A stretch of DNA of 64,000 bases from Candidatus Latescibacterota bacterium (GTDB taxonomy: Bacteria > Latescibacterota > UBA2968), in NCBI GenBank assembly GCA_965204745.1, contig OZ242010.1:5312001-5376000 (forward strand). Reading direction: 5' to 3'. Made by a program: the position numbers and the translations under genes. Below, piece by piece: positions 5,770 through 33,077 of the stretch (the first letter of the stretch is position 1; every line of letters starts with the position of its first letter). The notes beneath the pieces were generated by a model. It saw only the letters and a list, made by a program, of their open reading frames with translations, made no database searches and was not told the DNA's origin.

Positions 5770-5771
5770 CT

Positions 5772-7885: not shown

Positions 7886-8070
7886 CTCTTAGCCGCTCCT
7901 TCAAATTGTATGAAATCGACTTTATCGCATACTATCGCATGCTACACAAAAGCCAATGACCGTTGATTCGATTGCCGCTTCTTTGGGCGTGCGTCCACGC
8001 GCTTACAACCTCGTGTCCGTCTTATCGTTCCTCCACGTCCGTTTATCGACTCGGCAGGGCTTGCCGCGTC
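7873..8070 (-). ncRNA. Predicted TnpB omega/reRNA (scaffold over the tnpB 3' end and right end, plus about 20-nt flank-derived guide)
   Basis: Known TnpB architecture; boundaries are inferred, not observed. Confidence 0.5.
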
Positions 8071-10336: not shown

Positions 10337-10371
10337 AAAAAGGAAGGCGACCTGCCTTCCCCCTTTCTTTT
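10337..10371. terminator. Bidirectional intrinsic terminator
   Basis: A-tract, ggaaggc/gccttcc stem, T-rich tail, between convergent genes. Confidence 0.7.
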
Positions 10372-14494: not shown

Positions 14495-14565
14495 CTCTTG
14501 GGGATTGTGTGGCCTTCTCACGTCTCACGTCTCGCTTTTAGGGTTGTGTGGCCTCTTGCATCTTT
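14495..14565. repeat. Composite heptamer (CGTCTCA) repeat with two gg..ttgtgtggcct spacers
   Basis: gggattgtgtggccttctcacgtctcacgtctcgc...gggttgtgtggcctcttgc. Confidence 0.6.
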
Positions 14566-14651
14566 GGGCCGCCCCGTGCAGATTTTTGTTAGCGAAAGGC
14601 TATCTCCGCAGAGACGGCCTTTCCCGATTCCTTTACATTTGGGAGAATGAT

Positions 14652-15985: not shown

Positions 15986-16078
15986 ACGGTTGGGCGTTGG
16001 GCGGCCCTCTCACCTCTCACCTCTTGCCTCTTGCTTCTTGCCTCTCACCTCTCGCCTCTCACCTCTCACCTTTCACCT
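15981..16078. repeat. Composite heptamer (CCTCTCA/CCTCTTG) tract with G-rich spacer
   Basis: About 10 heptamers; the spacer is the reverse complement of a variant of the 52-bp unit at 191. Confidence 0.85.
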
Positions 16079-16079
16079 T

Positions 16080-17078
16080 ATGATCAACTACATCATCCGC
16101 CGATTGTTGCACATGATCCCCACGCTGATCCTGATTTCCATGGTCAGCTTCGCGGTGATTCAAGCGCCGCCGGGCGATATGCTCACGTCTCGCCTCGCGG
16201 AATTGGCCGAGCAGGGCGAGTTGGGGTCCGAAAGCGCGATGGCGCAAATTGACGCCCTGCGCGAACGCTATGGGCTCAACGATCCGATCTACGTGCAATA
16301 CGCGCGCTGGATCTGGAAAATCGTCAGCAAAGGCGATTTTGGGCAATCGTTCACGTACGAAATGGACGTGATGGAACTCTTGGCCGAACGCTTGGGACTC
16401 ACCTTGACCCTGACGCTCTCCACCTTGATCTTTACGTGGATCGTCGCCATACCCATTGGCATCTACTCGGCCACGCGGCAATATTCCATTGGGGATTACG
16501 GCTTTACCTTTCTCGGGTTCATCGGCCTTGCCACCCCCAACTTTTTGCTGGCACTGGTCATTATGTTCATCCAAGTCTCGGTCTTTGAAGCCGAATCGGT
16601 CGGGGGGTTGCTCTCGCCCGAATACATCGGCGCGGCGTGGTCGTGGGCAAAATTTGTCGATTTGCTCGAGCACATCTGGGTGCCCATTCTCGTCATTGGC
16701 ACGGGCAGCACGGCGGGCATCATCCGCATTATGCGCGGCAACTTGCTCGACATCCTCGGGCAACAACACATTCAAACCGGGCGCGCCAAGGGCCTCAAAG
16801 AAGGCAAGGTCATCGTCAAGTACGGCGTCCGCATTGCCATCAACCCGTTGGTCAGCCGCCTCGGCCTCGAGTTGCCCGGCCTGCTCTCGGGCGCGGTTGT
16901 GACCGGCATCGTGCTCGGCTTGCCGACGGCCGGCCCCATTTTTTTGACCGCGCTCACGTCGCAAGACATGTACTTGGCGGGCGCATTCCTGCTCTTGGCC
17001 GCCACGTTTTTGCTCGTGGGCAATTTGTTGGCGGATATTCTTTTGGCATGGCTCGATCCGAGGATTCGCTATGAGTAG
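16080..17078 (+). CDS. ABC permease OppB/DppB-like
   Basis: YIIRRLL, GDFGQS, TGRAKGL, D.LLAWLDPRIR. Confidence 0.9.
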   Translation: MINYIIRRLLHMIPTLILISMVSFAVIQAPPGDMLTSRLAELAEQGELGSESAMAQIDALRERYGLNDPIYVQYARWIWKIVSKGDFGQSFTYEMDVMELLAERLGLTLTLTLSTLIFTWIVAIPIGIYSATRQYSIGDYGFTFLGFIGLATPNFLLALVIMFIQVSVFEAESVGGLLSPEYIGAAWSWAKFVDLLEHIWVPILVIGTGSTAGIIRIMRGNLLDILGQQHIQTGRAKGLKEGKVIVKYGVRIAINPLVSRLGLELPGLLSGAVVTGIVLGLPTAGPIFLTALTSQDMYLAGAFLLLAATFLLVGNLLADILLAWLDPRIRYE

Positions 17079-18201
17079 CATCGATCAAACGACGCCGGAG
17101 GTACAGGCGGAAGAAGCCGCGACCGCGGGCACGTATTCGCAGCGCGAGTTGATCTGGCGGCGGTTCAAAAAACACCGCGCAGGCGTCGTGGGGGGATACG
17201 TGGTGCTCTTTCTGTATGTCTGCGTTTTCATGGGCGAATTTTTGGCGCCGCACGACCCGGCGCATCGCTACTACAACTACGTTCATTTGCCCGCGCAGCG
17301 CGTTCACATCTTTTCCGAGAACGGCATCCACTGGCCCTTTGTCTATGGGATCAAAAAGGCGTTTGACCGGCAAACCGGCATCAAAACCTATACGGAAGAC
17401 GCCTCGGCGCGCTACCCGGTGTACCCGTTTGCCCGCGGCGCGGAATACGCATTTTACGGCCTCTTTCGCACGGATATTCACTTGTTTGGCACGGGCAAGG
17501 GCAACCCGCTGTTCCTCTTGGGCACGGACCGGTTTGGGCGCGACATGCTCTCGCGCATCATCGTGGGCGGGCGCATCTCCCTCACCATTGGCCTGCTCGC
17601 GGTGCTCATCAGCCTCACCCTCGGCTCTGCGCTCGGCGTGATCTCGGGCTATTACGGCGGCCATGTCGATAACATCATCCAGCGCATCATCGAACTGATC
17701 TTTGCGTTTCCATCCATCCCCATTCTCATGGCCCTCAGCGCGATCTTGCCCCCAGAGTGGCCCTCGCATCTCGTTTTTATGGGCATCGTCACCGTGCTCG
17801 CGCTCGTGGGTTGGGGCGGCCTCGCCCGGGAAATCCGCGGCAAGACCCTGTCCATCCGCGAAGCCGATTTCGTGCTGGCGGCCCGCGTGGCCGGCGCCAA
17901 AGACAGGCGCGTCATTTTTCGGCACTTGCTCCCGTCGATGTTTAGCCACATCATCGTCATCGCAACCCTGGCGATTCCGGGATTCATCCTCGGCGAAAGC
18001 ACGTTGAGTTTTCTCGGCTTGGGCATCAAACCGCCCATGACCTCGTGGGGCTTGCTCTTGGCCGACGCGATGAATATTCACTCCCTCAGCTTGTATCCCT
18101 GGCTGCTTTTGCCCGGCGTGTGCATCATCATCGCGGTGCTCGCGTTCAATTTTCTCGGGGATGGGTTGCGCGATGCCGCGGATCCGTATTCGAGCAGATA
18201 G
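17071..18201 (+). CDS. ABC permease OppC/DppC-like
   Basis: WRRFKK, LGTDRFGRD.LSR, ESTLSFLGLG, FNFLGDGLRDAADP. Confidence 0.9.
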   Translation: MSSIDQTTPEVQAEEAATAGTYSQRELIWRRFKKHRAGVVGGYVVLFLYVCVFMGEFLAPHDPAHRYYNYVHLPAQRVHIFSENGIHWPFVYGIKKAFDRQTGIKTYTEDASARYPVYPFARGAEYAFYGLFRTDIHLFGTGKGNPLFLLGTDRFGRDMLSRIIVGGRISLTIGLLAVLISLTLGSALGVISGYYGGHVDNIIQRIIELIFAFPSIPILMALSAILPPEWPSHLVFMGIVTVLALVGWGGLAREIRGKTLSIREADFVLAARVAGAKDRRVIFRHLLPSMFSHIIVIATLAIPGFILGESTLSFLGLGIKPPMTSWGLLLADAMNIHSLSLYPWLLLPGVCIIIAVLAFNFLGDGLRDAADPYSSR

Positions 18202-18224
18202 CGCGGATCGTTTGAGGACTTCCC

Positions 18225-19214
18225 ATGACACAACCGCTTTTGGACATCTGCGACCTCAAAACCTATTTTTACACGGACGATGGGATCGTGCGCGCAGTCG
18301 ATGGCGTGTCCCTGTCCATGATGCCGCAACAGACCCTGGGCGTGGTGGGCGAATCCGGGTGCGGCAAAAGCATCACGGCATTTTCGACCATGCGCCTCAT
18401 CCCAAGCCCGCCGGGCAAAATCGAAAACGGGCAGATTTTGTTTCGCAAAACCCCAAAAAGCGATCCCATCGACCTGACCCAACTCAACCCCAAAGGCGCG
18501 CAGATGCGCGGGATTCGCGGGAATGACATCGCCATGATCTTTCAAGAACCCATGACCTCGCTCAGCCCGGTCCACACCGTGGGCAACCAGATCGGCGAAG
18601 CCATTATGTTGCACCAAAATGCGGACAAAACCGAGGCTCGGGAACGCGCCATTGACGCGCTCAACAAGGTGCGCCTGCCGCGTCCGGACCGCCAGGTCGA
18701 TGCCTATCCCCACGAACTTTCGGGCGGGATGCGCCAACGCGCGATGATCGCCATGGCCCTGTCGTGCAACCCCAACTTGCTCATCGCGGACGAACCCACC
18801 ACGGCCTTAGATGTGACGGTGCAGGCCCAAATTTTGGACCTGATGCGCCAACTGCAATCCGATATCGGCATGGCGATTATGCTCATCACGCACGACTTGG
18901 GCGTGGTCGCCAGCATGGCGGATTACGTCGCGGTGATGTATTTGGGCAAGATCGTCGAGTATGCCGACACGCGCACCATTTTCAAAAACCCGCGCCATCC
19001 CTATACCAAGGGCTTGCTGAACTCCCTTCCCCAAGTGGGGCACAAACGCCGGCTCGTGCCCATTGAAGGCGCGATTCCAGATCCGTTTGAAATCCCCCAG
19101 GGCTGTGCTTTTGCCCCGCGTTGCCCGCACGCCATGCGAAAGTGCCGCGAAGAACCGCAACTCCTCGAAATCGCATCGGGCCATCGCGTGAGTTGTTGGT
19201 TGGAAAATGATTGA
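18225..19214 (+). CDS. ABC ATPase OppD/DppD-like
   Basis: [30 protein letters not shown]-terminal Cys cluster. Confidence 0.92.
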
Positions 19215-20256
19215 TGGACAAAACGCCATGACAAAAACGAACGCGCAACCCCTCCTCGAAGTGACGCAACTCAAGACCCATTTCCCAATTAAAAAGGGCA
19301 TTTGGCGGCGCGTGGTGGGCTATGTCAAGGCCGTAGATGGGATCGACCTGACCCTGTACCGCGGGGAGACCCTCGGTTTGGTGGGCGAATCCGGCTGCGG
19401 CAAGACCACGGCGGGGCGGTCGATCATTCGCCTGATCGAGCCTTCGGCTGGGAAGATCGTTTTCCACCACAACGGCGAGCCGATTGACCTGCGCGGCTTG
19501 GGCAAGGAAGATATCCGCAACCTGCGGCGCGAATTGCAATACATCTTCCAAGACCCCTTCTCGTCGCTCAACCCGCGCATGACGGTTTTCGACCTCGTGG
19601 CCGAACCCCTCGTCATCAACCGAGTCGCGTCCGGCGCCGAACTCGAAGACCGCATCGAGCAGTTGCTCATCCGCGTGGGCTTGCGTCCGGATCACCTGCG
19701 CCGCTATCCCCATGCGTTTTCGGGGGGGCAACGCCAGCGCATCGGCATTGCCCGCGCCCTCGCGCTCAATCCCAAACTCGTCATTGCCGACGAGCCGGTC
19801 TCTGCCCTCGACGTGTCCGTACAAGCGCAGGTCATCAACCTCCTCGAAGACCTGCAAGAAGCCTTTGGCCTGACGTATTTGTTCATCGCGCACGACCTCG
19901 GCGTCGTGGAACACATTTCGGATCGCGTGGCGGTGATGTACCTCGGTCAGATCATCGAGATCACCACCTCTGAGCGGCTCTATCAAAATCCCCTGCATCC
20001 CTATACCGCGGCCCTTTTATCCGCCGTTCCAGTTGCGGACCCGGATGATCGACGCCAGCGCATCTCTATCGAAGGCGATGTGCCCGATCCCGCGGATGCC
20101 CCATCCGGATGCAAATTTCACACGCGCTGCCTGTACGCGCAGGACAAGTGCAAAACAGAAGCGCCCCAGCTAAGAGAAATCGAACCGGGGCACGAGGTGA
20201 GTTGCCACTTCGCGGGCGAACTCACATTCTCCGATCACCACGTCGAACCCGCTTGA
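19207..20256 (+). CDS. ABC ATPase OppF/DppF-like
   Basis: [25 protein letters not shown]; start may be 19228. Confidence 0.92.
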
Positions 20257-20285
20257 CCTGGGACCGTGCTTTGGTATTTTGAAAA

Positions 20286-20564
20286 ATGAACTGGACCGTC
20301 ACAATAGGTACGAGGGCACAAAAACAAATCAGGCGTTTACCCGAACAGATCAAAAAGAATCTTGTTGCTCTGATCAGAGAGATTGAAGTGGCAGGTCCAG
20401 TTCGTGGGAACTGGCCTAATTATAGCTCTCTCGGAAGAAATCGGCACCATTGTCACATCAAAAAAGGAAGACCGACTTACGTCTCTGTTTGGGAAGTAAA
20501 GGACAAAAACATCAAACTGGTAGAGGTGACTTATGCAGGTACCCATGAAAAAGCACCGTACTGA
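20286..20564 (+). CDS. RelE/HigB-fold toxin
   Basis: 92 aa, basic; WPNYS.L...HCHIK.GRPTYV..W...YAGTHEKAPY; lies upstream of an HTH gene. Confidence 0.7.
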   Translation: MNWTVTIGTRAQKQIRRLPEQIKKNLVALIREIEVAGPVRGNWPNYSSLGRNRHHCHIKKGRPTYVSVWEVKDKNIKLVEVTYAGTHEKAPY

Positions 20565-20889
20565 AGCAGACACCATTGAACTGCGCTTTCTCGGTCCGCA
20601 AGAAAAACGCAAGCAAGCCATTCGCGTACTCGATTCCATGGGCTTTGTGGATATATCCGATTCAGTTCCCTGGCAGGCGTGTTTTTCGTATGCTGACGAA
20701 CAGTTGCCCAGCATTTCTCTGGCGGGAGCAAGGGAAAAGGAAGGGTTGACACAACGAGAACTGTCTCGGTTGACGGGCATTCCGCAACGACGTATTTCAG
20801 AAATGGAAAATGGCAAACGGCCCATTCAAAAAGAAACAGCGAAAAAACTGGGGAAAACACTCAACATCAGCTATAAAGTCTTTCTGTGA
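20545..20889 (+). CDS. XRE/HigA-type HTH antitoxin
   Basis: LAGAREKEGLTQRELSRLTGIPQRRISEMENGKRPI; overlaps the toxin 3' end. Confidence 0.8.
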   Translation: MKKHRTEADTIELRFLGPQEKRKQAIRVLDSMGFVDISDSVPWQACFSYADEQLPSISLAGAREKEGLTQRELSRLTGIPQRRISEMENGKRPIQKETAKKLGKTLNISYKVFL

Positions 20890-20952
20890 ACCGACAGATC
20901 GCCTAAAAATATCCACTGAAATTTTTTGACGCTCGTCTTTCCGAGGGAAGCG

Positions 20953-21750
20953 ATGTCTTTGACGCAAGCGCAAATTGACCGCTTTCGCAAGTGGGGGTAC
21001 GCGGTCGTGCCCGATATGTTCACGCGGCGGGAAGTGCGTGCGATGCGCGGGGAACTCGACCGCTTCAAGCGCGAGGGGCTTCTCCGCAATGTGGCGACGG
21101 ATGGCGATGGGCAAACCCATTCGCAAACGCAGATCAACTTGCAGATTTGCCCCATCACCCCCAAGAGTGCGTTTTACCGCGCCCTGCACTTTCACCCCAA
21201 GGTCATCGCGCTCGTCGAACAACTCATCGGCTCGCCCTTTGTGTTCTACCTCGATCAGATCTTTCTCAAACCCGGCAAACAGGGCATTGGCACGGACTGG
21301 CATCAGGACAACGCCTATTTCAAAGTCAGGGACCCGGGCAAAGGCGTTGGGATGTGGGTTGCCCTGCACGATGCGACTATCGCCAACGGCACCTTGCACA
21401 TCATTCCCGGCAGCCATCGAGAAAACCATGCCCACGACCGCGATCCCAACAGCGACCACCACATTCACTGCGCCGTGCCCGAAGAGAGGGCCATCCCCAT
21501 TGAATTGCCGGCCGGAGGCGCGGTCTTTTTTAATTTTGGCATCGCGCACAGCACCCGCGCAAATACCACAGCCCGAGAACGCGCGGGCCTTGCCCTGCAT
21601 TTTTTGAACGCGGACTATATTCCCGAAAACATCAGAGGCACGCGGCGATATACCCACCTCACAGGCCCTCTCGCCACGGGTGGGAAGAGGGAATACGGCC
21701 GCTGCATTGCCAACACTTGGCGCGATGAAGTGGATCGCGTGCTTGGGTGA
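20953..21750 (+). CDS. PhyH-family dioxygenase
   Basis: FRKWGY, DWHQDN, NGTLHIIPGSH, AHST.AN...RAGL. Confidence 0.9.
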   Translation: MSLTQAQIDRFRKWGYAVVPDMFTRREVRAMRGELDRFKREGLLRNVATDGDGQTHSQTQINLQICPITPKSAFYRALHFHPKVIALVEQLIGSPFVFYLDQIFLKPGKQGIGTDWHQDNAYFKVRDPGKGVGMWVALHDATIANGTLHIIPGSHRENHAHDRDPNSDHHIHCAVPEERAIPIELPAGGAVFFNFGIAHSTRANTTARERAGLALHFLNADYIPENIRGTRRYTHLTGPLATGGKREYGRCIANTWRDEVDRVLG

Positions 21751-21833
21751 ATCGTGCGTGCCCATCCTCTCTACCCCGCCGCTTTGGGCGATGCCCCCGT
21801 GTCCGCCCGCCGAAAAAAAATTGAAATTAGCTG

Positions 21834-21862
21834 TTGACATGTTTCCCCAAATCAGATAGTTT
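21834..21862 (+). promoter_or_regulatory. Sigma70-type promoter heading the viperin unit
   Basis: TTGACA-17 bp-TAGTTT. Confidence 0.55.
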
Positions 21863-22054
21863 TTGAGCAGAACATAGAACCTCGTGCTTTGATGCGTTTT
21901 GCATCTCTTCCGATCCCGATGGTCTCAGTCGGGAATCCTACGGGTTCGACAATCTGTAACGGGATGCGCGGATTGTTTGGTTTTATTCGACAAGCCGATA
22001 ATCCCGTTCGATTGCCCCACTTGGGATAGGGTGTCGCTTAACAAAGGAGTGGGA

Positions 22055-23854
22055 ATGAGCGAAGCCAAAGATGGCCGTTCTGGCCTTGTTTTTCCGCTAC
22101 GCGATTCTTCTTCCGAAGAAATTTTCCTCATTGTGCAGTGCCTTCAGGACGCTGGTTTTTCCCGCCATGACCGAGCATGGCTGGTGCGCGTTTTTGAACG
22201 CCCAGATTGTTTTGGCGATCCCAACGGGGACGCTGTGTTGAAAGAGGCGTTTGCGGCTTCTTTTGAGCATGTTCTGCCCGGCGTCGTGGAAGAATTGGGC
22301 GAACCGGAGCAAACCGAGGAAGACAGGCAGAACCGCTTGGCACTTCTGTTCGGGTTCCTGCTTGGCTTTGGGCCGATCTACAGCGAGGTGGTTCTACCCG
22401 ATGACAGGCTCGGAAAATCGGGCGACGCTTGGCATGTTCCCGCGTGGGTTGGCGCGTTCCAAAAGCACGCGAGGTTTTGTGCGAAAAGTCTGGGTTGGCA
22501 AAAACTCAATGCGTTGCGGGACGCGGGTGTTTTTCGATTCTTTGACCTGATTCCATTTCTCTTTCCCAAAGGCGTGCCATTGGCCCAGGTCGTGGAGTTG
22601 GGCTTGTTAAATCCGATTCTGCGACGCGGATGGTCGAGCGATGATTTTCGGGATCCCAGAGAACTCGAGTTTTGGTTGATCTGGCGATTTCGCACGGATG
22701 CCGAATGCCGCGACATGATTGACCTGCACACGTTATTGCGAGCGTTTTCAGAGTTTCCCGATGGCGTTTTGGGCGATAAAATACTCGGGCTGTTGAACGC
22801 CATCGAATACGCTATGAACCTGGGATCGGCATTGGGCGATAAACGCCTGAATGCGTTGGGCGACGGATGGCGGGTTGTTGCACGGGAGTTGACGCCGTTT
22901 TGGGAACTGTTGAATGGGAAATCGCCAGAGTCGCAGCCGCAACCCTCATCCCTGCTCAAAGCATGGTGGCGGTTGGCTGTGGCGATTCACTACAAAAGTA
23001 TGGGTGGGTTGGAATCCGATCTCGCCGATGAACTCAGGAACCAGCTCGTCGAAAGTGCCGCACGGCACATTGGGATTTTGCGAAAGATAGTGCGAGAAAC
23101 GCCTGAAAATTTTGCAGGTAGGGATTCGACGGGAATGCCCGTTTCCGATTTTTACGACAAGGCGTTTGAAGTGCTGTGCATTTTTGCACCCCCGTGGAAA
23201 TGTCTGAAGTCCTTATTGCTGGCTTTTTCCGAGATGACCGTGCCGGCCATTGCATCTGATCTGCGGCCATGGGCAGAAGCGAACAGAGAAGCCCCGCCGC
23301 ATCCGCATCATCACATCCCGCTGTGGATCGGCATCGCCATGTATCCGCAGAATCTTCGGAATGAATTGAAGCGAGACCCGCACTTGCGGCGGTTGCGCGA
23401 GGAGTTCGCCAAATTTTGCCTCGACCGGCTCAAAACAAAAAAAATTGACACCGAGGCGAAAACCGAGGTGTCTGATTACGCAGATGAAGAATTTGTCGAA
23501 CCGCGTCGCCCGTGGCGACGGTGCTATGTGCAAGCCGTAACCGCATTGCGCGTCAATCCCGGCGGCCGGGCGCACAGAACCCTGTTCTGGCTTTCTAGGA
23601 ATGATCCGGATAAAACGGTCCGAGAATTTGCAAAACGAGCGCACGGACAAATTCGGCATCTCAACCGCAACAAATCGAATTTAGATCGCGGTGCATCACC
23701 CCGCCGCCCCCTATTTGAAGCCTTTTGGTGGCTTCGCCAAGCGCATCTGTTGACGCTCGACAAACCGATTGATGAGGCGGGCGCGCTGCGAACGCGCAGA
23801 ACGGAGTTGCACCGCACCCGCGAGAAAGCTGATCGCCTCAATTGGGAAGCATAG
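22055..23854 (+). CDS. Uncharacterised 599-aa, probably alpha-helical protein
   Basis: AAGGAG RBS before ATG 22055; long open frame; Trp/Arg-rich C-terminus (SPRRPLFEAFWWLRQAHL); no family recognised. Confidence 0.75.
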   Translation: MSEAKDGRSGLVFPLRDSSSEEIFLIVQCLQDAGFSRHDRAWLVRVFERPDCFGDPNGDAVLKEAFAASFEHVLPGVVEELGEPEQTEEDRQNRLALLFGFLLGFGPIYSEVVLPDDRLGKSGDAWHVPAWVGAFQKHARFCAKSLGWQKLNALRDAGVFRFFDLIPFLFPKGVPLAQVVELGLLNPILRRGWSSDDFRDPRELEFWLIWRFRTDAECRDMIDLHTLLRAFSEFPDGVLGDKILGLLNAIEYAMNLGSALGDKRLNALGDGWRVVARELTPFWELLNGKSPESQPQPSSLLKAWWRLAVAIHYKSMGGLESDLADELRNQLVESAARHIGILRKIVRETPENFAGRDSTGMPVSDFYDKAFEVLCIFAPPWKCLKSLLLAFSEMTVPAIASDLRPWAEANREAPPHPHHHIPLWIGIAMYPQNLRNELKRDPHLRRLREEFAKFCLDRLKTKKIDTEAKTEVSDYADEEFVEPRRPWRRCYVQAVTALRVNPGGRAHRTLFWLSRNDPDKTVREFAKRAHGQIRHLNRNKSNLDRGASPRRPLFEAFWWLRQAHLLTLDKPIDEAGALRTRRTELHRTREKADRLNWEA

Positions 23855-23902
23855 TGTCCCCCTGCGGCGATAGATACCAACGAGAAAGGAGGTGATGAGA
23901 AT

Positions 23903-24067
23903 ATGGCGAAAATCAGTGGCAATCGCTCGGGCGGTACCCGCAGTGGCGGTAAAGGTGGTCGGCAAAGCGGCGGTCAAAGCAAAAGCCGTGGAAGTGGCGG
24001 CTGGCCGAGCAAGACCGGCAACCGCTCCGGCACTGGCCGAACCAATGCCCCGCCGAAAAGCAAATGA
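23903..24067 (+). CDS. 54-aa Gly/Ser/Lys/Arg-rich small protein (absent from the ORF track)
   Basis: AAGGAGGTGA RBS; MAKISGNRSGGTRSGGKGGRQSGGQSKSRGSGGWPSKTGNRSGTGRTNAPPKSK*. Confidence 0.65.
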   Translation: MAKISGNRSGGTRSGGKGGRQSGGQSKSRGSGGWPSKTGNRSGTGRTNAPPKSK

Positions 24068-24243
24068 ACTGATCGGAAGGTGCTGATAACGCCAGTTCAT
24101 TCACGCGATCAACACCTTCCGCCAACAACTGGTGCGTCCGCACTTCGTGGCTCAATAGCCACCCGTTTGATCTCTTCGAGATCGTGCTATGGCGCATCCT
24201 TTCAAGACAATTTTTGAATCGCCTTGTCAAAGGAGAAAGGATC

Positions 24244-25143
24244 ATGAAAATGACCATCAATTCCCCCGATCTGTCGCAGAAAATTCCATCGGTCAACTAC
24301 CATCTCTGGGAGCCGTGCAACATGCGTTGCAAGTTCTGTTTTGCCACATTTCAAGATGTCAAGCGAGACATGGAACTGCCCAAAGGTCACTTGCCGGAGA
24401 ATGAGTGTCTCTCGGTCGTGGATCGACTTGCCGAAGCCGGTTTTGAAAAGATCAATTTTGCCGGCGGAGAACCCACGCTTTGCCCTTGGTTGCCAAACTT
24501 GATCAAGCGGGCAAAGAACCATGAGATGGTCACCTCCATCGTTACAAATGGATCGAGAATCACCGATCCATGGCTGGACGGGCTGAACGGAAGTTTGGAC
24601 TGGATCGCGTTGAGCATTGATACCGTTGATCCGGAAAAACTGAAACGCTCGGGTCGCGCACTTGGTGGTGGAAAGAAACCCATGACCGAGGAAGAATATC
24701 TGGGCATCATCCGCACCGTAAAGCGACGAGGGGTTCGGCTGAAAATCAACACGGTCATCACTTCTGAAACGTGGCAAGAGGATTTTACCGACTTCATCAG
24801 ATCGGCCAAACCGGAGCGATGGAAGTTGCTCCAAGCCCTCCGCGTCGAGGGGCAAAATGACGCGCATATCGCCGATTTCGAGATCGCGCCAGAGCAATTC
24901 GAGGCGTACGTCCAACGCAATCGCATCGTCGAAAATGACGGTATTATCGTCGTGCCAGAGAGCAATGAAATGATGACGGAAAGTTATGTCATGATCGACC
25001 CAGCGGGCCGCTTTTTTGATAACGCACAAGGTGCCCATACTTATAGCCGCCCTATTTTGGAGGTTGGCATTGAAGATGCTTTGCAGGATGTATCGGTTGA
25101 CCGTGAACGTTTTCTCAAAAGAGGAGGGCAGTATGAGTGGTGA
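24244..25143 (+). CDS. Prokaryotic viperin (pVip), antiviral radical SAM ddhNTP synthase
   Basis: SVNYHLWEPCNMRCKFCF, KINFAGGEP, KINTV, RWK, M.ESY.MIDP.GRF, and the viperin-type C-terminus F.KRGG.YEW. Confidence 0.92.
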   Translation: MKMTINSPDLSQKIPSVNYHLWEPCNMRCKFCFATFQDVKRDMELPKGHLPENECLSVVDRLAEAGFEKINFAGGEPTLCPWLPNLIKRAKNHEMVTSIVTNGSRITDPWLDGLNGSLDWIALSIDTVDPEKLKRSGRALGGGKKPMTEEEYLGIIRTVKRRGVRLKINTVITSETWQEDFTDFIRSAKPERWKLLQALRVEGQNDAHIADFEIAPEQFEAYVQRNRIVENDGIIVVPESNEMMTESYVMIDPAGRFFDNAQGAHTYSRPILEVGIEDALQDVSVDRERFLKRGGQYEW

Positions 25144-25343
25144 TACACTCCCGCGCTGAAGCGAAGCGGGGTGAGGCCGTTAGAAATGAGGAGCGAAACC
25201 TCGCTGAGAAAGTTGCCCGACGCGAGGCAGTGCTTCAGGCGTACCGGATGTTTGACCCGATTGAGATCGATACCAGTCACCTCGATCCCGATGCCGTACT
25301 CGTAGCGGTGCTCGAGGTTCTGCACAAATCCGTATTGTGTTAA
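25137..25343 (+). pseudogene. C-terminal remnant of a CMPK2/thymidylate-kinase-like gene
   Basis: R..RGE...EE..LA.....R..V.QAY....EIDTS...P..V resembles the lid and C-terminus of NMP kinases; no P-loop; overlaps the viperin stop. Confidence 0.55.
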
Positions 25344-25354
25344 GCATCTGATAC

Positions 25355-25395
25355 AAAAAAGTGCCCCGGCGATGTTTTGCCGGGGCACTTTTTTT
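25355..25395. terminator. Bidirectional intrinsic terminator
   Basis: aaaaaagtgccccggc-gatgtttt-gccggggcacttttttt. Confidence 0.9.
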
Positions 25396-25427
25396 GTCAC
25401 CGTCGAGGGTTTAATCCGCGCCATCCC

Positions 25428-27989
25428 TTAATCCGCGACAATCCGCGATCCAGACTGGAGAAACCGGCCCGTGTGGGAAGTGGGAACGCGGGTGATCGCT
25501 TCGGGGGTGCCCGTGGCGACGATGTGCCCGCCGTTTTCGCCGGCGTCGGGGCCGAGGTCGATGATCCAGTCGGCGCGTTTGATCACGTCGAGATTGTGCT
25601 CGATGACGAGCGCGGTATTGCCGCGATCCACGAGGCGGTCGAGCACTTCGATGAGCACGCGGATGTCGTCAAAGTGCAAGCCCGTGGTGGGTTCGTCGAG
25701 CAAGTACAGGGTCTTGCCCGTGGCACTGCGCGCCAGTTCAGTGGCGAGTTTCACGCGCTGTGCCTCGCCGCCGGACAATGAGGTGGCCGCCTGCCCCAAG
25801 CGCAAATAGCCCAGGCCCACGGCTGCGAGGGAGTTGAGGTGTCGCTGTGCGGCGGGAATGTTGCGGAAAAAGGACTGCGCCTGCGCGACGGTCATGTTCA
25901 ACGCGTCGGCGATGGAACTGCCCTTGTACCGGACCTCGAGGGTTTCCCGGTTGTAGCGCGTGCCCGCGCAGGTGTCGCAAGTGACGAACACATCGGGCAA
26001 GAAGTGCATCTCGATGCGGCGCACCCCATCGCCCTGACAGGCTTCGCACCGCCCGCCCTTCACATTGAAACTGAACCGGCCCGCGCCATAACCGCGCACT
26101 CGGGATTCGGGCAGTTGCGCGTACAGGTCGCGGATGGCGGTGAACGCGCCGGTGTACGTGGCGGCATTGGATCGCGGGGTGCGCCCAATGGGCGATTGGT
26201 CGATGCGGATGACCTTGTCGAGTTGCCCCATGCCCTCTATTGCGCGATGGGGCAGGGGGTCTGCATTCGCGCGGTGAAAATGCCGGGCGAGCGCGGGATA
26301 CAGGGTTTGGTCGATGAGCGAACTCTTGCCGGAGCCGGACACGCCGGTGACGCACACAAAAACGCCCAGTGGAATATCCACCTCCACGTCTTGCAAATTG
26401 TGCCCACGGGCGCCCCGAATCGAGAGATGGCCGTGCGGTTGGCGCGCATCCGGAGGCGGGGGAATGGTCTTGCGCCCCGAGAGATAATCGCCGGTGAGGG
26501 ATCGTTCATCGGCCATCACGGTTCGCGGCGCACCCTTTGCGATCACCCGGCCCCCGTGTTCGCCCGCGCCCGGCCCGAGGTCGATGAGATAATCGGCCAT
26601 TTCCATGGCTTCGCGGTCGTGCTCGACCACGATGACCGAATTGCCCAAATCGCGCAGATTGCAAAACGCTTTGATGAGTTTGCGATTGTCGCGGGGGTGC
26701 AGGCCAATGCTCGGTTCGTCGAGCACGTACAGGACGCCAACGAGGCGCGTGCCGATTTGCGTTGCCAAGCGGATGCGCTGAAATTCGCCACCGGAAAGCG
26801 TGGTTGCCCTGCGGTTGAGCGCGAGATACCCCACGCCCACATCTGCGAGAAAGCCGAGGCGGCTTTCGATTTCGCGGATCAGGGGCGCGGCGATCTCGGC
26901 GGCATTGTCTCGCAAGTCGAGCGTTTGAAAAAACCGCCTGATCCCATCGATGGGCAGGCGGGCGATATCGGCGATGGTGCTATCGGCAAGGGTGATGGCT
27001 AGCGCCTCTGCGCGCAAGCGCGTGCCATGGCACTCGGGGCAGGTTTGATCGCGCACGCGCGAATCGGAATCGCCCGGGGCCGGATCGCTGCTAGATGGAG
27101 GCTTGCTGAATAACTCCCCGTCAGCGCCTGCGTTGGAAACCGTCCCAAGGCCATCGCAGGTCGGGCAGGCGCCATAAGGGCTGTTGAAGGAAAACAAGCG
27201 CGGTTCGATGGCGTGGATTTCAAAATGGCCCTCTGTGCAGGCAAAGCGCGTGGAGAACGTCCAGTCGCCTTTGCCGACAATGTCGAGTGTGGCCGTGCCG
27301 TCGGCCAAATCGAGCGCGGTTTCGAGCGAATCCGCGAGGCGCGAAGCCAGGTTGCCGCGCACCACCAAGCGATCCACGACCGCGTCAATGCTGTGCGCGG
27401 CGCGTTTGTCCAAGGTGATCGCACGGTCGAGCGGCAGAATCGCGCCATCCACGCGCACGCGCAGATAGCCCGCTTTTCGCAACTGCACAAAAACGCTTTG
27501 CTGCCCGCCTTTTGCATTGCGGACCAGCGGCGCGAGCACCTGAAGGCGTTGGCCTTCGGGCAAGGCGAGCACGCGATCCACGACTGCCGCGACCGTCTCT
27601 CGGACGATGACCTGCCCACAGACCGGACAATGCGGCGTGCCAACTCTGGCAAACAAGAGGCGCAAGTGGTCATAGACTTCCGTCAACGTGCCCACGGTCG
27701 AACGCGGTGTGCGGGGCATGCCGCGCTGTTGAATTGCCACCGCAGGCGAAAGACCTTCGATGCTGTCGGCATCGGGCTTGTCCATCAAATCGAGAAATTG
27801 CCGCGCGTACGCAGACAGGGATTCGACATAACGGCGTTGCCCTTCGGCGTAGATCGTATCAAAAGCCAACGACGATTTGCCCGACCCGGAAGGCCCGGTG
27901 ATCACGACCAGACAGTTGCGCGGAATGTCCAAGTCGATATTTTTGAGGTTGTGCTGCCGCGCACCGCGAATGGTGATCGTATCGCTCAT
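25428..27989 (-). CDS. uvrA: Excinuclease ABC subunit A (853 aa, short)
   Basis: [37 protein letters not shown], second Walker [10 protein letters not shown], zinc finger CEAC...CDTC. Confidence 0.95.
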
Positions 27990-28051
27990 ATCTCAAAATA
28001 GCCGAACCGCGCAAAAAATCAACCGCGTCGTATCGGCCTTCGGAAATTGCC

Positions 28052-28080
28052 TTGACATCGCAAAAATTATTTATTAGCAT
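28052..28080 (+). promoter_or_regulatory. Sigma70-type promoter
   Basis: TTGACA-17 bp-TAGCAT upstream of the giant FtsX-like gene. Confidence 0.55.
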
Positions 28081-28223
28081 AAAATTCGCTTTGTTTGGAT
28101 CCGTAAGGAGATATGGACGATAGCCTGCTCGTTCCCCTGCCTCTGGCTGTAAAAGTCCTACATCGCGCCTAATTAGACTTGGAAACCGGATCGTCGTTTT
28201 CGCCTTTTAACAGGAGCTTTGCA

Positions 28224-31200
28224 ATGCGTAAAGTCGGCACAGGCATTCTTTGGGTCATCACGATTTTGATGTTGTCGTCGGTGACTGTGTTCAACCCGGG
28301 GCAGGTGACGGATTTTTTCGTCACGCTTTTCAATATCAAACCGAGCATTCCCGAGCTCAAGCCCATCGAGATTTCGGAACGCGACCGCGAGATTCGGACC
28401 GTTGTCGAGTCCATTGCCCAAGAAGACGTGCGCCAAGTCATCGCGGACCTCTCGGCGATGGGATCGCGGGTGCCGGGCTATGCGGGGCATCGGCAGGCGT
28501 TTGAATACGTCAAACGGCAGTTTGAACAAATCGGTCTGGAAAACATCCAAGTCGAAGAACACCTGGTCACGGTGCCCATCGACAAAGGCGCGGCCCTTAC
28601 CCTGACGGAAACCGGCGAAAAAATCGAGATTTACGGGTTCTGGCCGAACCACGTTCAAACGCCTTCCATCCCCGGGGCCGGGGTTTCTGGCCCCCTGATT
28701 TACGGAGGCAAGGGGGCGTTTTCAGAACTCAATGGCAAACGGGTTGAAGGCAGCATCGTGTTGATGGATTTCGATTGCGACCAAGGATATCTCAGCCCGC
28801 GCATGCTCGGCGCGCAGGCGATTTTGTTTTACGACAATGGGCGCGTCACCCGAGGGCAAGCGATAGACAAGTTCTTGCCGGTGCCGGTTGACGTGCCCCG
28901 GTTCTGGGTGGAGAAAGCCGACGCGATGCGCCTGCTCGAGATGGCCGAAACCCAATCGCCAGAAGTGCATTTGACGTCGCGGATGGACTGGGAAGAAGTC
29001 CCGGCGTGGAACATCTTTGCCACCTTGCCCGGCTCGGATACGTATATCACCGAGCGCGAAGAGCGCAAGTGGAAGGATCAGCAAATCGCGTTGAGCGCGT
29101 TTTACGACGCGATTTCAGTCGTGCCCGCAATCGCGCCGGGCGCCGAGAACGCCTCGGGCATGGCCGCGCTGTTGCACGCGGCGAAAATCCTCAAGCGGCA
29201 TCCGCCGAAATACTCCGTGACCTTTTTGGCGACTGGCTCGCACTTTCAGGGCTTGGCCGGCATCAACGATTTCGTGTATCACCACGCGCGCGAAAGCGAC
29301 CACTTCCGCGACAAAATTCCGGATAGTTTGTCCGCCGAGGGCGCGTATCTCGACGGGGAGTTCATTCACCGAGACAGCGAGGATTTCGAGGAGCTCATCC
29401 CGGACAGTTACAAGATCGACTTTCGGTTGTTCGTGGGCTTGGACTTGTCGAGCGAATCCGACCAGTTGGCGAGTTTTTCGCACGGCACGTTTAACAACCC
29501 CAACTGGCAGACCGACAATTATCTGAACAATTTGCTCGCGCCTTATGCGGACAAGTTCGACAAGTACATGGCCAAGGTTTTTCCCGGAGAGGAAAACCGG
29601 CATGTGGATGCCATCGCCCCGCCCAAGCGCACCTGGAAAAATTTCATGCCCATTCGCATGGGCTTCGACAGCGAGGCGGTCACGTTTGTGGGCAAAGAGG
29701 GCATTACCCTGGCCACGCCCTCGACCGTGCGTCGATTTGTCGATACGCCCATCGACCAGGTGGAGCGCGTCAACATGGACAATTTGACGCGCCAAGTGCA
29801 AACCGCGGTTGCGGCGATGATGAAGGCCGGCGAGGATGCCGAGTTTTTCAGGGTGTCCAAGCTCAAGTTGCAAGACCGCGGGCACAGCTTGTCCGGGCGC
29901 GTGTTGTGGTTTGACCGCAATGTGGATTTCGCCTTGCCCCGCGTGCCGGTGCCGGGCGCCGTGGTCACGTATCGGCAACCGGGCAATGTGCCGAGTTGTG
30001 CGGGCGTCCGCACCTTGATCATCGACAAGACCACGCGCGGGCCGATTTACGATGTCGATAAATTGGCGGGCGGCAGGACCGATGTGGATCCCAACTTGTT
30101 TGGCAAAGAGGAGCGCGTCAAAGAAACCGGGGTGTTTTCCTTCGACATTATGCGGAACCGCTTTACCAATCGCATTTTGTCCTACGACATTGACGAGGAG
30201 GGCAGAATCACGTCCGCGCCGGATATGGGGTCCGAAGGCGAGGACAAGTTCCCCTTGCTCCAGCGGTATGGCTGGTGGGAAAACGAAATGATAACGGTGT
30301 TGTTCAAGTGCCGCTCCATCAGCGTTTTTGAAATCATCGACTCGAGTTATTTGTCCGCGCTCGATTTTATGACCGTGCTCAACGAGAACGACACCACGCC
30401 CCTGGAATTTGGCAACACGTACTTGCCCGGGCAAAGCACCAAAGAGGGCGATGTGACGCGCGCCGCGGTGACATTTGCGCGCATCGATGAAGTCACGGGC
30501 GAGGCCGAGCGCCTGAAGGTGTTGATGAGCACGGGCCTGTTTGGGGTGAAGTACTTGCTGATCAACGCGCCGCAGGAATTTTTGGACACGCCGATTGACA
30601 AGAGCCAAGTGAATCCCACGCTCTTGGAAGAGGCGCGGGGCGAGGGCTACGCGCCCGGGGTCATTTTCCGACCCTCGTATCAGGCGGCGCGAGATATGTG
30701 GGTCATCGACGACGTGCGGATGAAACAACTCGCGCAATTCGGCATTGAGAACAACCGCCTCACCCTGTTGCACAACAGCGCGCGCGAGGCCCTCCTCGAA
30801 GCCCGCCAATACCTGGAAAATTTGGATTACGAAGGCTTTATGGCCGCTTCGCGGCGCGCCTGGGGCCTCGAGGCACGCGGGTACCCAGAGGTGATGGCAA
30901 CGGCCAACGACACGGTGCGGGGCATTATTTTTTATTTTATTTTGCTGCTCCCGTTTTCGTTTTTCTGCGAGCGGTTGTTGATCGGCGCGTCGAGCATTAC
31001 GGCGCGCTTGAGTTGGTTCGCCGCGTTTTTCATATTTTTCTTCATCGTGTTGCGCTTCGTCCACCCGGCCTTTCAGCTGAGCAATTCCCCGTACATCATC
31101 TTTCTCGCATTTGTGATCATGGCCTTGGGCGGGGTGGCCATGGTCATCGTGGTGTCCAAATTCGGGGACGAAGTTCGCAAGATGAAACAGGCTTCTGCCG

Positions 31201-33077
31201 GCACGTACGAAGCGGACGTGGGGCGCATCAGCGCGACGTCGGCCGCGGTCGTGCTGGGGATTTCCAACCTGCGGAAGCGGCCCATGCGAACCGGGTTGAC
31301 GGCGATTACCCTCACCTTGTTGACGTTCACAACCCTGTCCTTTACGTCCGTGCAAACGTCCCTGAAATTTTACAAATTGCCCCGCGACAACGAGCCGTCT
31401 TACCAAGGGGCATTGGTGCGCGACCGGTCGTGGCGCGGCATGCAGGAATCCGTGCTCAACTACTTGCACAGCGCGTTTGAGGGCCGCGCGGATATCGTGC
31501 CGCGGTCGTGGTATTTGTCGCAGGTGCGCGGGGAACGCGCTTACGTGAATTTTTCGCGCGTGACCGAGGCCACCGCAGATATGGGCCCCAAAGAGATTTA
31601 CGCGGATTTCGACGTGGGCATCACCACGGGCAAAGACAGCTTTGTCAACGCGCTATTGGGCCTCACCCCGGACGAAACCAAAATCACCGGCGCGGATCGG
31701 TATTTGATGAGCGGGCGGTGGTTCCAGCCCGGGGAGGAGTTCGTCTGCTTGTTGCCCAATGACTTGGCGGAACTCGTGGGGATTTTCCCGGAAGACGCGG
31801 GCACGGCGAAAATCGAAATGCAGGGGCAGATTTTTACCGTGATCGGCATTCTCGATTCCGAGGCGTTTAATAAGTTCAAGGATTTGGACGACGAAAAGCT
31901 GACCCCGGTCGATACGGTGAAGGAAAAAGACGACTTGGCAGACGCGCAAGACCAAGACCCGCGCGTGGTCGCCGCCGCGCCTATCGAAACCTTTACGCAT
32001 CTGGAATCGACGAATGTGCTCGTCGTGCCCTACGAGTACATCCGCGACATCGGGGGCGTGTTGGCGTCGGTTGCTATCGCCAATTTCAAGGATGACAGCG
32101 GGCAGCCCAAATCGGATTTCGTGCCGGATATCGAGGAGTTCATGGCGCGCGTGTCCCTGACGATGTTCGTGGGCAAAGGCGAAGGCGTCACGGTGTACAG
32201 TTCGATAGGGTCCACATCGCTTTCCGGCTTGGGCAATTTGTTCATTCCCATTTTGATCGCCGCGCTCATCGTGCTCAATACCATGATGGGCGCCGTGTAC
32301 GAACGCTTCCGCGAGATCGGGATTTATTCATCGGTGGGCTTGGCGCCCAATCACATCGCCGCGCTTTTCCTCGCCGAGGCCGGCGTGTTTGCCACCCTCG
32401 GCGCGGTGATGGGCTATTTGATCGGACAGGTGCTCGTGCTCGTGTTGTACAACCAGGGCTTGTTGGGCGGGCTGGAATTGAATTACTCGTCCCTGTCCGC
32501 GATTTCCGCCACCCTGATCGTGATGGCAACGGTGTTTCTCTCCGCGCTTTATCCGGCGAAAAAAGCCGCGGATATGGCCGTGCCCGACGTGACCCGCAAG
32601 TGGGAATTTCCAGATCCGGATGGGGACCGCTGGGTGTTCGACTTTCCCTTTACCGTGGGCGGGGCCGAGGTCTTGGGCATGTATTCCTATCTGACGCGGG
32701 TGTTCGAATCTTATGGCGAGGGGTCCGTAGGCGATTTCGTGGCGGACCACGTCAAGTTCTGGTCCGAGGATCACGCGGGCGAGCCGCAGTACAATATCGA
32801 CCTGACCGCGTGGTTGGCGCCTTATGATTTGGGCATCAGCCAGGAAGTGCAACTCAAGGCGATTCCCACGGGGGAACACAATATTTACAAGATCGAGGTG
32901 ATCATCAATCGCTTGAGTGGCGATGTGGCGTCGTGGAAGCGGATCAATCGCGGATTTTTGAATGTGCTGCGTAAGCGGTTCCTGGTGTGGCGCACCATTC
33001 CGGGGGACATGAAGTTCAATTACGCAGAAGAAGGCCGCCGGATCTTGTCTGGCGAAGTTTTGGAAGAAGTCGCATAA
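28224..33077 (+). CDS. Giant membrane protein: PA/M28 peptidase-like domain, TM bundle and MacB/FtsX-like permease
   Basis: SRVPGY.G, APGAENASG; NLRKRPMRT.LT; V.ER.REIGIYSSVGLAP..I..LFLAE; CAGGAG RBS. Confidence 0.8.
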   Translation: MRKVGTGILWVITILMLSSVTVFNPGQVTDFFVTLFNIKPSIPELKPIEISERDREIRTVVESIAQEDVRQVIADLSAMGSRVPGYAGHRQAFEYVKRQFEQIGLENIQVEEHLVTVPIDKGAALTLTETGEKIEIYGFWPNHVQTPSIPGAGVSGPLIYGGKGAFSELNGKRVEGSIVLMDFDCDQGYLSPRMLGAQAILFYDNGRVTRGQAIDKFLPVPVDVPRFWVEKADAMRLLEMAETQSPEVHLTSRMDWEEVPAWNIFATLPGSDTYITEREERKWKDQQIALSAFYDAISVVPAIAPGAENASGMAALLHAAKILKRHPPKYSVTFLATGSHFQGLAGINDFVYHHARESDHFRDKIPDSLSAEGAYLDGEFIHRDSEDFEELIPDSYKIDFRLFVGLDLSSESDQLASFSHGTFNNPNWQTDNYLNNLLAPYADKFDKYMAKVFPGEENRHVDAIAPPKRTWKNFMPIRMGFDSEAVTFVGKEGITLATPSTVRRFVDTPIDQVERVNMDNLTRQVQTAVAAMMKAGEDAEFFRVSKLKLQDRGHSLSGRVLWFDRNVDFALPRVPVPGAVVTYRQPGNVPSCAGVRTLIIDKTTRGPIYDVDKLAGGRTDVDPNLFGKEERVKETGVFSFDIMRNRFTNRILSYDIDEEGRITSAPDMGSEGEDKFPLLQRYGWWENEMITVLFKCRSISVFEIIDSSYLSALDFMTVLNENDTTPLEFGNTYLPGQSTKEGDVTRAAVTFARIDEVTGEAERLKVLMSTGLFGVKYLLINAPQEFLDTPIDKSQVNPTLLEEARGEGYAPGVIFRPSYQAARDMWVIDDVRMKQLAQFGIENNRLTLLHNSAREALLEARQYLENLDYEGFMAASRRAWGLEARGYPEVMATANDTVRGIIFYFILLLPFSFFCERLLIGASSITARLSWFAAFFIFFFIVLRFVHPAFQLSNSPYIIFLAFVIMALGGVAMVIVVSKFGDEVRKMKQASAGTYEADVGRISATSAAVVLGISNLRKRPMRTGLTAITLTLLTFTTLSFTSVQTSLKFYKLPRDNEPSYQGALVRDRSWRGMQESVLNYLHSAFEGRADIVPRSWYLSQVRGERAYVNFSRVTEATADMGPKEIYADFDVGITTGKDSFVNALLGLTPDETKITGADRYLMSGRWFQPGEEFVCLLPNDLAELVGIFPEDAGTAKIEMQGQIFTVIGILDSEAFNKFKDLDDEKLTPVDTVKEKDDLADAQDQDPRVVAAAPIETFTHLESTNVLVVPYEYIRDIGGVLASVAIANFKDDSGQPKSDFVPDIEEFMARVSLTMFVGKGEGVTVYSSIGSTSLSGLGNLFIPILIAALIVLNTMMGAVYERFREIGIYSSVGLAPNHIAALFLAEAGVFATLGAVMGYLIGQVLVLVLYNQGLLGGLELNYSSLSAISATLIVMATVFLSALYPAKKAADMAVPDVTRKWEFPDPDGDRWVFDFPFTVGGAEVLGMYSYLTRVFESYGEGSVGDFVADHVKFWSEDHAGEPQYNIDLTAWLAPYDLGISQEVQLKAIPTGEHNIYKIEVIINRLSGDVASWKRINRGFLNVLRKRFLVWRTIPGDMKFNYAEEGRRILSGEVLEEVA

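Follow-up and report, generated by a model that had tools for sequence, protein, structure and literature searches.

The 64,000-nt window analysed here (contig OZ242010.1 of Candidatus Latescibacterota bacterium, positions 5,312,001 to 5,376,000; coordinates below count from its first letter) holds, at 21834-25395 on the plus strand, one compact 3.6 kb unit around a prokaryotic viperin (pVip). Its parts follow each other in the order promoter, structured leader RNA (R1), a 599-aa protein that we call c0, a micro-protein, a second structured RNA (R2), pVip, a decayed kinase gene and a terminator, with four plus-strand open reading frames (ORFs) of 599, 54, 299 and 68 aa between a PhyH gene and the convergent uvrA. 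The original prediction for this DNA had listed the promoter, leader, 599-aa protein, micro-protein, pVip, kinase remnant and terminator, all of which are present, and had placed them between PhyH and uvrA, a location that the family matches confirm. The block appears to be one instance of an operon that is self-contained and has spread horizontally, wherein promoter, R1, c0, micro-protein and R2 make up a constant chassis and the effector gene is the variable part.

The effector in the window, pVip (24244-25143, plus strand, 299 aa, apparently intact), is a viperin by all available sequence tests. It matches the PADLOC pVip models at 1.7e-114 to 2.7e-81 (pVip-kinase 1.7e-114, pVip 3.5e-89), scores 308.9 bits against the equivalog-level NCBIfam model NF038283 (viperin_w_prok, cut-off 180), and is recognized by Pfam Radical_SAM at 2.2e-20. 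Residues 15-299 align to residues 30-309 of mouse viperin 5vsl (E 8.7e-43), and the protein carries CNMRCKFC, aligned to the viperin CxxxCxxC motif, as well as the C-terminal KRGGQYEW; its three cysteines C25, C29 and C32 do not vary among 18 pVips taken from modules. Members of this family convert NTPs to 3'-deoxy-3',4'-didehydro-NTPs (ddhNTPs), chain terminators that stop phage transcription.

The kinase gene that follows has decayed. Its 68-aa ORF (25137-25343, plus strand) is matched by tblastn only to residues 141-197 of the 201-aa kinase of the related locus L005, at 63% identity (loci bear L numbers and genomes G numbers throughout). The C-terminal ~57-68 residues are left and the P-loop part is deleted; a complete VakA/PDC-M51B kinase with an N-terminal P-loop is not found in the window. 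Full-length kinases of relatives match Thymidylate_kin and PADLOC PDC-M51B (2.7e-28)/VakA; intact copies of 198-212 aa are found in L005, L022, L026 and L034, and comparable truncations in L001, L009 and L018. In these respects the locus resembles described pVip systems, which we take to be single genes or gene-plus-kinase pairs: the window gene fits the family definitions, and in relatives pVip is followed by the dTMP-kinase-like VakA/PDC-M51B gene. It differs from them in that pVip is here one of three cargos behind c0, the micro-protein and two RNAs, and in that the kinase in the window is no longer whole.

The three cargos became apparent on comparison of 41 species-representative genomes (Latescibacterota and Poribacteria, two labelled otherwise) with c0 proteins that are 49-86% identical. 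In each of the 40 genome loci that extend beyond c0, the same strand carries, downstream of it, pVip (14), a gene that we call c1 (25) and/or another, c4 (8), and 7 loci combine two effector types; c0 and micro-protein alone, with no effector behind them, were found in 0 of the 40. The c1 gene encodes an RNase of the beta-CASP metallo-beta-lactamase type (460-570 aa), in which the domains Lactamase_B, Beta-Casp and RMMBL are recognized, and c4 encodes a B12-binding radical S-adenosylmethionine (radical-SAM) protein that matches PADLOC PDC-M51A at 2.7e-88 over model positions 5-414 of 420. The cargo has been swapped over a short evolutionary scale with c0 retained, since modules of the window's own genus differ in their effector: pVip in the window, L001, L002 and L005, c1 in L003 and L004, and c4 in L014. 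The association reaches further. A metagenome contig scan with an 18-row distant c0 sub-alignment returned 26 loci, 23 of which are distant (c0 31-47% identical), and in 13 of these 23 the gene immediately behind c0 is pVip (7), c1 (4) or c4-like (2). Of the ten without such a neighbour, six end ≤700 nt from c0; several of the loci look like copies of one another. c1 is absent from the block itself, and a PDC-M51A-type gene is found neither in the window nor in its own genome, where only 23-24% identical partial matches were obtained. The genome does carry one c1 paralogue (55% identity; G000:C1:3981584-3983209, minus strand), which lies far from the module within a longer open frame of ~840-900 aa.

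These counts bear on what the original prediction offered for the two upstream genes, namely that they are either partners of pVip (a sensor or regulator) or a separate defence module in the same island. c0 homologues do occur with pVip, in 14 of the 40 genome loci and, at c0 identities of 31-38%, in 7 of the 23 distant ones, and on account of this co-occurrence, and because R2 and the terminator bracket the cargo, we regard the upstream genes as coupled to pVip rather than as chance neighbours. The partnership is not exclusive, however: the chassis has c1 more often (25/40), with c4 in 8/40, so c0 and the micro-protein are not pVip-specific. The idea of a separate module is abandoned, as c0 and the micro-protein form one unit with the cargo. 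All in all, the parts very probably belong to a single unit.

The gene for c0 (22055-23854, plus strand, 599 aa) has an ATG start that is kept in homologues. The two upstream genes had been said to belong to no assignable family, which proved right: neither c0 nor the micro-protein has a match in Pfam, NCBIfam or PADLOC, the last of these finding pVip but not the other two when the search that had been recommended was carried out. Among 75 diverse c0 relatives there was no meaningful Pfam match and a single chance-level one. The family is nonetheless sizeable, with 427 homologues at E ≤ 0.001 among 8000 scored candidates, the best 120 of them at 58-94% identity, and 450 representatives of 50%-identity clusters, 150 with E ≤ 1e-30; conservation is strongest over the C-terminal 200 residues. 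The AlphaFold2 model, built with the family alignment, is all-helical (pLDDT 89.7, pTM 0.87). A fold search (VIA wide) found only generic ARM/HEAT solenoids, including karyopherins, designed armadillo proteins and PBS-lyase-type HEAT repeats, with a best Z of 8.5 and TM ≤ 0.26, values that are not above chance level for helical repeats. Foldseek gave nothing at E ≤ 0.001 against either the PDB or the viral BFVD models; a sequence-profile search of the PDB returned only designed helical repeat proteins at E ~1e-3, and an Atlas feature search gave HEAT_2 clusters at 0.88-0.89. By sequence, c0 falls into none of the HEAT/ARM repeat families (0 Pfam families). Because there is no family match and the fold matches are generic solenoids only, we describe c0, as modelled, as an alpha-solenoid of no described family. 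Its N-terminal 215 residues, folded alone, reached a pLDDT of 57.9, too poor for a fold search. Prediction of a c0-pVip complex, with both proteins entered as alignments, scored 0.00 in two runs without controls, which is evidence neither way. Some relatives also look like tandem fusions of two c0 units (P0121, 1195 aa; G197:C1:1770741-1774199), with five matched stretches within one 1177-1195-aa frame.

Upstream of c0 lies a sigma-70-type promoter (21834-21862, plus strand), with a -35 TTGACA at 21834-21839, a 17-nt spacer and a -10 TAGTTT at 21857-21862. At the other end, a bidirectional intrinsic terminator (25349-25395, strand-neutral) consists of a 10-bp GC-rich hairpin, GTGCCCCGGC...GCCGGGGCAC, between an A-run and a T-run, and is common to the block and the convergent uvrA. 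A generic scan called neither element, and the -10 agrees at only 3/6 positions; their weight rests on conservation for that reason. An exact TTGACA occurs ≤75 nt upstream of R1 in 36/47 homologous leaders, and 35/47 have a correctly spaced -35/-10 pair that ends 6-23 nt before R1, which places R1 at or near the transcript 5' end. A similar terminator hairpin (82-90% identity) stands at the module end in at least 15 related loci of two phyla, and there is one copy in the window's own genome, so it travels with the unit and is not repeated across the genome. The loci with the hairpin conserved at module ends include L002-L005, L011, L014, L022, L026, L028, L029, L035, L036 and L041. Between these two elements the block has a G+C content of 0.51-0.56, against 0.59-0.65 in the flanks.

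R1 (21876-22039, plus strand) was delimited by conservation, covariation and a covariance model. Its nucleotide identity between loci is 77-89%, compared with 55-70% for the c0 proteins they encode. The fold is a three-way junction in which P1 closes P2 and P3; hairpin P4, which varies, and a putative pseudoknot, AUCCU:AGGAU/GGGAU, can be added. RNAalifold on 37 leaders gave 16 pairs, 12 of them compensatory. The covariance model finds 47 copies in 44/45 close-clade sources, all on the gene strand, the exception (L020) being a sequence that begins inside c0, and exactly one copy in the 5.48-Mb genome. In the extended structure (P1-P3, P4 and pseudoknot), 90.4% of cells are paired and 23/29 pairs changed on both sides, figures that none of 500 shuffles attained and that compare with 25-54% in slid controls (22-54% for the R1 and R2 structures together), although the R1 and R2 alignments were fitted to their models, which favours the structures. 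By part, P1-P3 are ~99% paired; P4 (73%) and the pseudoknot (90%, with little variation) are weaker.

Some R1 copies are placed unusually. In L031 (7933-8049) and L032 (7969-8085) R1 lies downstream of c0, before the micro-protein or pVip, which argues that it is bound to the module and not strictly to c0. It is tandemly duplicated in L029 (5630-5980) and L036 (4740-5945), and in L036 an IS5-family transposase (263 aa, 1.6e-66) sits between R1 and c0. L014, from the same genome as G085, has a second R1 together with a fragment of c0 residues 524-591 (9935-10339), 2 kb downstream of the intact module, seemingly what is left of a second one.

R2 (24122-24222, plus strand), recognized by covariation, lies between the micro-protein gene and pVip. 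It is 75-94% identical in nucleotide sequence upstream of all three effector types and folds into a three-way junction of 24 pairs. Its covariance model finds 35 copies in 32 sources, on the gene strand, and one copy in the window's own genome; all 35 precede an effector start by ≤250 nt (16 pVip, 14 c1, 5 c4), and the two-cassette loci L022, L026 and L032 have two copies each. Subject to the same fitting, 96.1% of cells are paired and 14/24 pairs are compensatory, values attained by 0/500 shuffles. Among the 31 genomes of the family, R1 and R2 are each present in exactly the 8 with c0, and the window's own genome has no copies of R1, R2 or the micro-protein besides those of the module. Rfam 15 gave no match to either RNA at E ≤ 1 in window positions 20000-26000 apart from terminator-like noise, and none at E ≤ 0.1 in L021, L040, L055 and L022 except an unrelated thiamine pyrophosphate (TPP) riboswitch; this last match (L022:1-61, 45 bits, E 1.1e-5) is below the gathering score and is cut at the locus end. 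As far as sequence can tell, R1 and R2 have what is expected of cis-regulatory leaders, being structured with compensatory changes, untranslated and on the gene strand.

The 3' end of R2 suggests how such control could work. Right after the closing stem, the tail AUCCUUUC (24196-24203) complements the Shine-Dalgarno (SD) region of pVip, GAAAGGAU (24235-24242). Matched tail/SD variants are seen in L038 (UCUCCUC/GAGGAGA) and in L011 and L013 (CUUUUC/GAAAAG), and the tail:SD duplex beats shuffled tails (z < -1.64) in 18/35 R2 copies, mostly the high-scoring ones.

The arrangement of R2, cargo and terminator could be explained differently. An autonomous pVip cassette, with or without its kinase, may have landed in a recombination hotspot downstream of an unrelated, conserved c0/micro-protein operon, c0 having no role in pVip function and R2 and the terminator serving as conserved flanks that allow cassette exchange. 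Bernheim et al. are said to have found in 2021 that pVips act alone when expressed in E. coli, which would suit such a cassette. In L022, L026 and L032, moreover, the pVip-kinase pair looks inserted between c0 and micro-protein/c1, with R2 on both sides, and a conserved R2 upstream together with a terminator downstream would favour homologous exchange. The kinase is also the only frequent partner reported, found with 12% of bacterial viperins according to one study (10.1101/2023.09.13.557418). We nevertheless think this explanation improbable. The effector is in place in every one of the 40 loci, c0 and micro-protein never standing alone; distant c0 genes that lack R2 still adjoin pVip, c1 or c4, which a hotspot defined by R2 cannot explain; and the R2 tail complements the effector's own SD, which points to regulation of the cargo.

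The remaining chassis gene encodes the 54-aa micro-protein (23903-24067, plus strand), which is rich in Gly, Ser, Arg and Lys and has the conserved motif GWPSKTGxxSGxGRxNAPPK. Its family hidden Markov model finds it in 25/41 genome loci. A near-perfect SD, AAGGAGGTGA (perfect, and at 23885-23894, in the window), precedes the ATG by 5-8 nt in 22/22 complete copies; differences at codon positions 1/2/3 number 3408/2891/5962, and the median ratio of nonsynonymous to synonymous substitution rates (dN/dS) is 0.22 (168/231 pairs usable). Because of the SD and the codon-position pattern we read it as translated into a probably abundant peptide that is basic and disordered. A homologue search gave only 7 matches, since genes this short are seldom called. 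Another small hydrophilic protein occupies this slot in 12 further loci, and 4 loci show none. Ten of the 12 alternatives carry NRANQLNPNNDAYWxSRG, and the other two are seed-maturation-protein-like. The former (50-65 aa) were found in L003, L005, L011-L013, L015, L016, L019, L037 and L041, at ~7750-8100, and the latter in L009 and L018 at ~7895-8060 (3.7e-4, 21.2 bits against a cut-off of 22); most alternative slot proteins have a strong SD, and they have no family match.

Such peptides raise the question of whether the operon serves stress physiology, as a dormancy operon in which hydrophilin-like micro-proteins accompany RNA- and nucleotide-pool enzymes under metabolite riboswitch control. 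The micro-proteins would fit, being small, disordered, hydrophilic, provided with very strong SDs and of three types, one of them a sub-threshold Seed-maturation-protein match; so would the two riboswitch-like leaders, the many housekeeping neighbours and the lack of mobile-element genes and of plasmid or phage copies. The effectors speak against it: pVip qualifies as a viperin at equivalog level, PADLOC candidates derived from defence islands are what c4 and the kinase resemble, and swapping of effectors is typical of defence systems. Furthermore, even within one genus, and with complete genomes compared, the operon is very unevenly distributed, and restriction-modification (RM) and other defence genes are frequent nearby. 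We accordingly give the stress explanation a small probability.

The position of a short, highly expressed peptide gene immediately 5' of radical-SAM genes is also reminiscent of ribosomally synthesized and post-translationally modified peptides (RiPPs), whereby the micro-proteins would be precursors modified by the radical-SAM enzymes and processed by the metallo-beta-lactamase-fold protein, with c0 as a scaffold. Sponge symbionts, to which the hosts belong, are a setting known for natural-product pathways, and c4 is weakly like B12 radical-SAM C-methyltransferases (KedN5 family, 2.7e-29, far below the cut-off). This proposal is very hard to maintain. The window's radical-SAM protein is a viperin over its full length, nucleotide-binding C-terminal extension included, and, as the Pfam scan found no SPASM or RiPP-recognition domain, no peptide maturase; c1-only loci have the micro-protein but no radical-SAM gene; c1 has RNA-specific RMMBL and Beta-Casp domains; and the same peptide type precedes three unrelated enzymes.

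With these explanations considered, the reading that we favour, if by a modest degree, is a modular system against phages that is gated by RNA and has pVip as one of its exchangeable cargos. That the unit acts in defence is itself fairly probable; co-transcription, RNA gating, the role of c0 and the anti-phage function are what we infer from the arrangement as a whole. In this mechanism, a single transcript would start ~6-8 nt before R1, and R1 would control c0 expression. The R2 tail AUCCUUUC would pair with the effector SD GAAAGGAU, leaving the effector untranslated, until a signal lifts the R2 block. That signal could come from a small ligand; alternatively, c0, the basic micro-protein or both could act on the RNAs once infection has been sensed. 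Released pVip would then make the ddhNTP chain terminator, and phage transcription would stop. Whether the anti-SD gate works as proposed seems to us an even call, and to name c0 the sensor or regulator is guesswork, guided by its fold and its constancy.

The distribution of c0 is patchy: it occurs in 19/168 genomes of the window's phylum, in 32/176 of the Poribacteria phylum and in 8/21 of the window's genus, where many of the c0-less genomes are complete single contigs. When window positions 16000-32000 were compared at the nucleotide level with the uvrA loci of four same-genus genomes without c0, uvrA was the only stretch that aligned; the c0-less genomes have other genes at the uvrA flank (in G083, ResIII, an epimerase and a 338-aa gene). 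As a conserved anchor, uvrA adjoins the module also in L002, L003 and L005. As for the neighbourhood, 25 of 125 representative neighbour proteins (within ~6 kb) match PADLOC at E ≤ 1e-5, over 15/41 loci, a count that has no matched background and whose in-window control is not independent. The matches include type I, II and III RM parts, PDC-S01, PDC-M07, PDC-S57, PDC-S70, PDC-S11 and HEC-04. In the window, an RM pair and another restriction endonuclease (REase)-like gene lie 6-19 kb upstream of the block, which suggests a loose defence island reaching the module, and the surroundings as a whole lean towards a defence-island setting.

Besides the limits of that neighbour count, several observations weigh against the reading that we favour. 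The close clade alone yielded R1, R2 and the micro-protein, which were not detected beside distant c0 genes, tail:SD pairing is clear in only 18 of the 35 R2 copies, and a promoter-like site at 24224-24251, called by the generic scan, could drive pVip separately. Three unrelated hydrophilic peptide types in one slot, one of them seed-maturation-protein-like, also fit a stress response. PADLOC has no match for c0, the micro-protein or c1. A search of 72,556 plasmid and 50,697 phage records found no c0, no recombinase belongs to the unit, and the flanks vary by lineage and are in many cases housekeeping genes (AcrB, SelA, oxidoreductases, ABC transporters). Finally, no RNA data sets are listed as holding window positions 21800-25400, the holders being sponge and other metagenome contigs.

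Comparison with known systems helps to delimit what is new. PDC-M51, a B12 radical-SAM protein with a kinase, is approached by relatives whose c4 and kinase match PDC-M51A/B. It is, however, an untested candidate that the literature searched does not mention; the window has no PDC-M51A gene and a kinase remnant only, and most c4 loci have c0 but no kinase. By analogy, a constant c0 with alternative effectors and a patchy cross-phylum spread recalls CBASS, Avs and Lamassu, and the repeat-solenoid of c0, presumably suited to partner binding, recalls solenoid sensors such as the DSR2 C-terminal domain. Unlike CBASS, Avs and Lamassu, c0 has no recognizable NTPase, cyclase or other enzymatic domain, the effectors can be stacked, and control apparently runs via cis-acting structured RNAs; the likeness is one of analogy and implies no homology. 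R1 and R2 resemble SD-sequestering riboswitches in being multi-stem junctions with covariation, R2 with an anti-SD:SD option, and differ from them in having no Rfam match, in occurring as two elements per operon and, for R2, in standing unchanged in kind before three unrelated genes; they could instead be protein-binding operators. c1 scores 3.2e-96 and 5.9e-92 against aCPSF1 and the Cas14 of type VII CRISPR, respectively, yet its 323 and 309 bits fall far short of the cut-offs of 580 and 800 bits, and no Cas genes are nearby. The bacterial viperin literature that was searched mentions only kinase partners and eukaryotic fusions, with no alpha-solenoid partner or leader RNA, and the supplements of these papers may list neighbours. 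The pVip is of a known kind, and the chassis (c0, R1, R2, the micro-protein slot and the effector exchange) appears in none of the libraries or literature searched, which did not extend to supplements.

Viperins are among the few immune enzymes common to bacteria and animals, and this locus wires one to a protein family of 450 representative clusters and to two RNAs absent from Rfam. It brings three questions within direct reach of experiment, namely whether bacteria gate their viperins, which task the alpha-solenoid family performs and whether defence effectors come under the control of new RNA switches, and the swappable cargo flags the beta-CASP RNase and the PDC-M51A-type radical-SAM protein as candidate effectors of the same pathway. 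A bolder and rather doubtful extension is that the c0 family is an undescribed modular immune class, in which a solenoid sensor and two new classes of structured RNA switch would keep effectors that target nucleotides or RNA from being translated until infection. Were it true, no elements of riboswitch type before R1 and R2 would have had the gating of effectors against phages as their dedicated task; what they sense might be an alarm signal derived from a nucleotide, or even what viperin produces.

The defence genes upstream in the window comprise a type II methyltransferase (4.6e-212) with an REase-like neighbour at 2858-6174, a TnpB/Cas12f-like gene at 7942-9183 and an REase_II/MkoA-like gene at 14505-15893. 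Closer to the block, overlapping ORFs of 92 and 118 aa (20286-20889, plus strand, G+C 0.47) have a toxin-antitoxin-like layout. A toxin-antitoxin pair had been predicted here, and half of it found support: the 118-aa ORF is HTH_3 (9.6e-14, Pfam), but its 92-aa partner has no match in Pfam (E up to 10), PADLOC or NCBIfam. The PhyH gene, identified by its family match, follows at 20926-21750, immediately upstream of the block. On the far side, none of the 23 ORFs beyond uvrA (28-64 kb) has a specific match; residues 866-1517 of a 1632-aa ORF (28179-33077) match PADLOC CARF_LolE_TM (2.5e-55), a match that is, at a guess, driven by the permease region. uvrA itself (25428-27989, minus strand; UvrA_inter and ABC_tran) encodes 853 aa, compared with 917-924 aa in several same-genus relatives, and, like that of G083, is without ~65 residues near residue 300.

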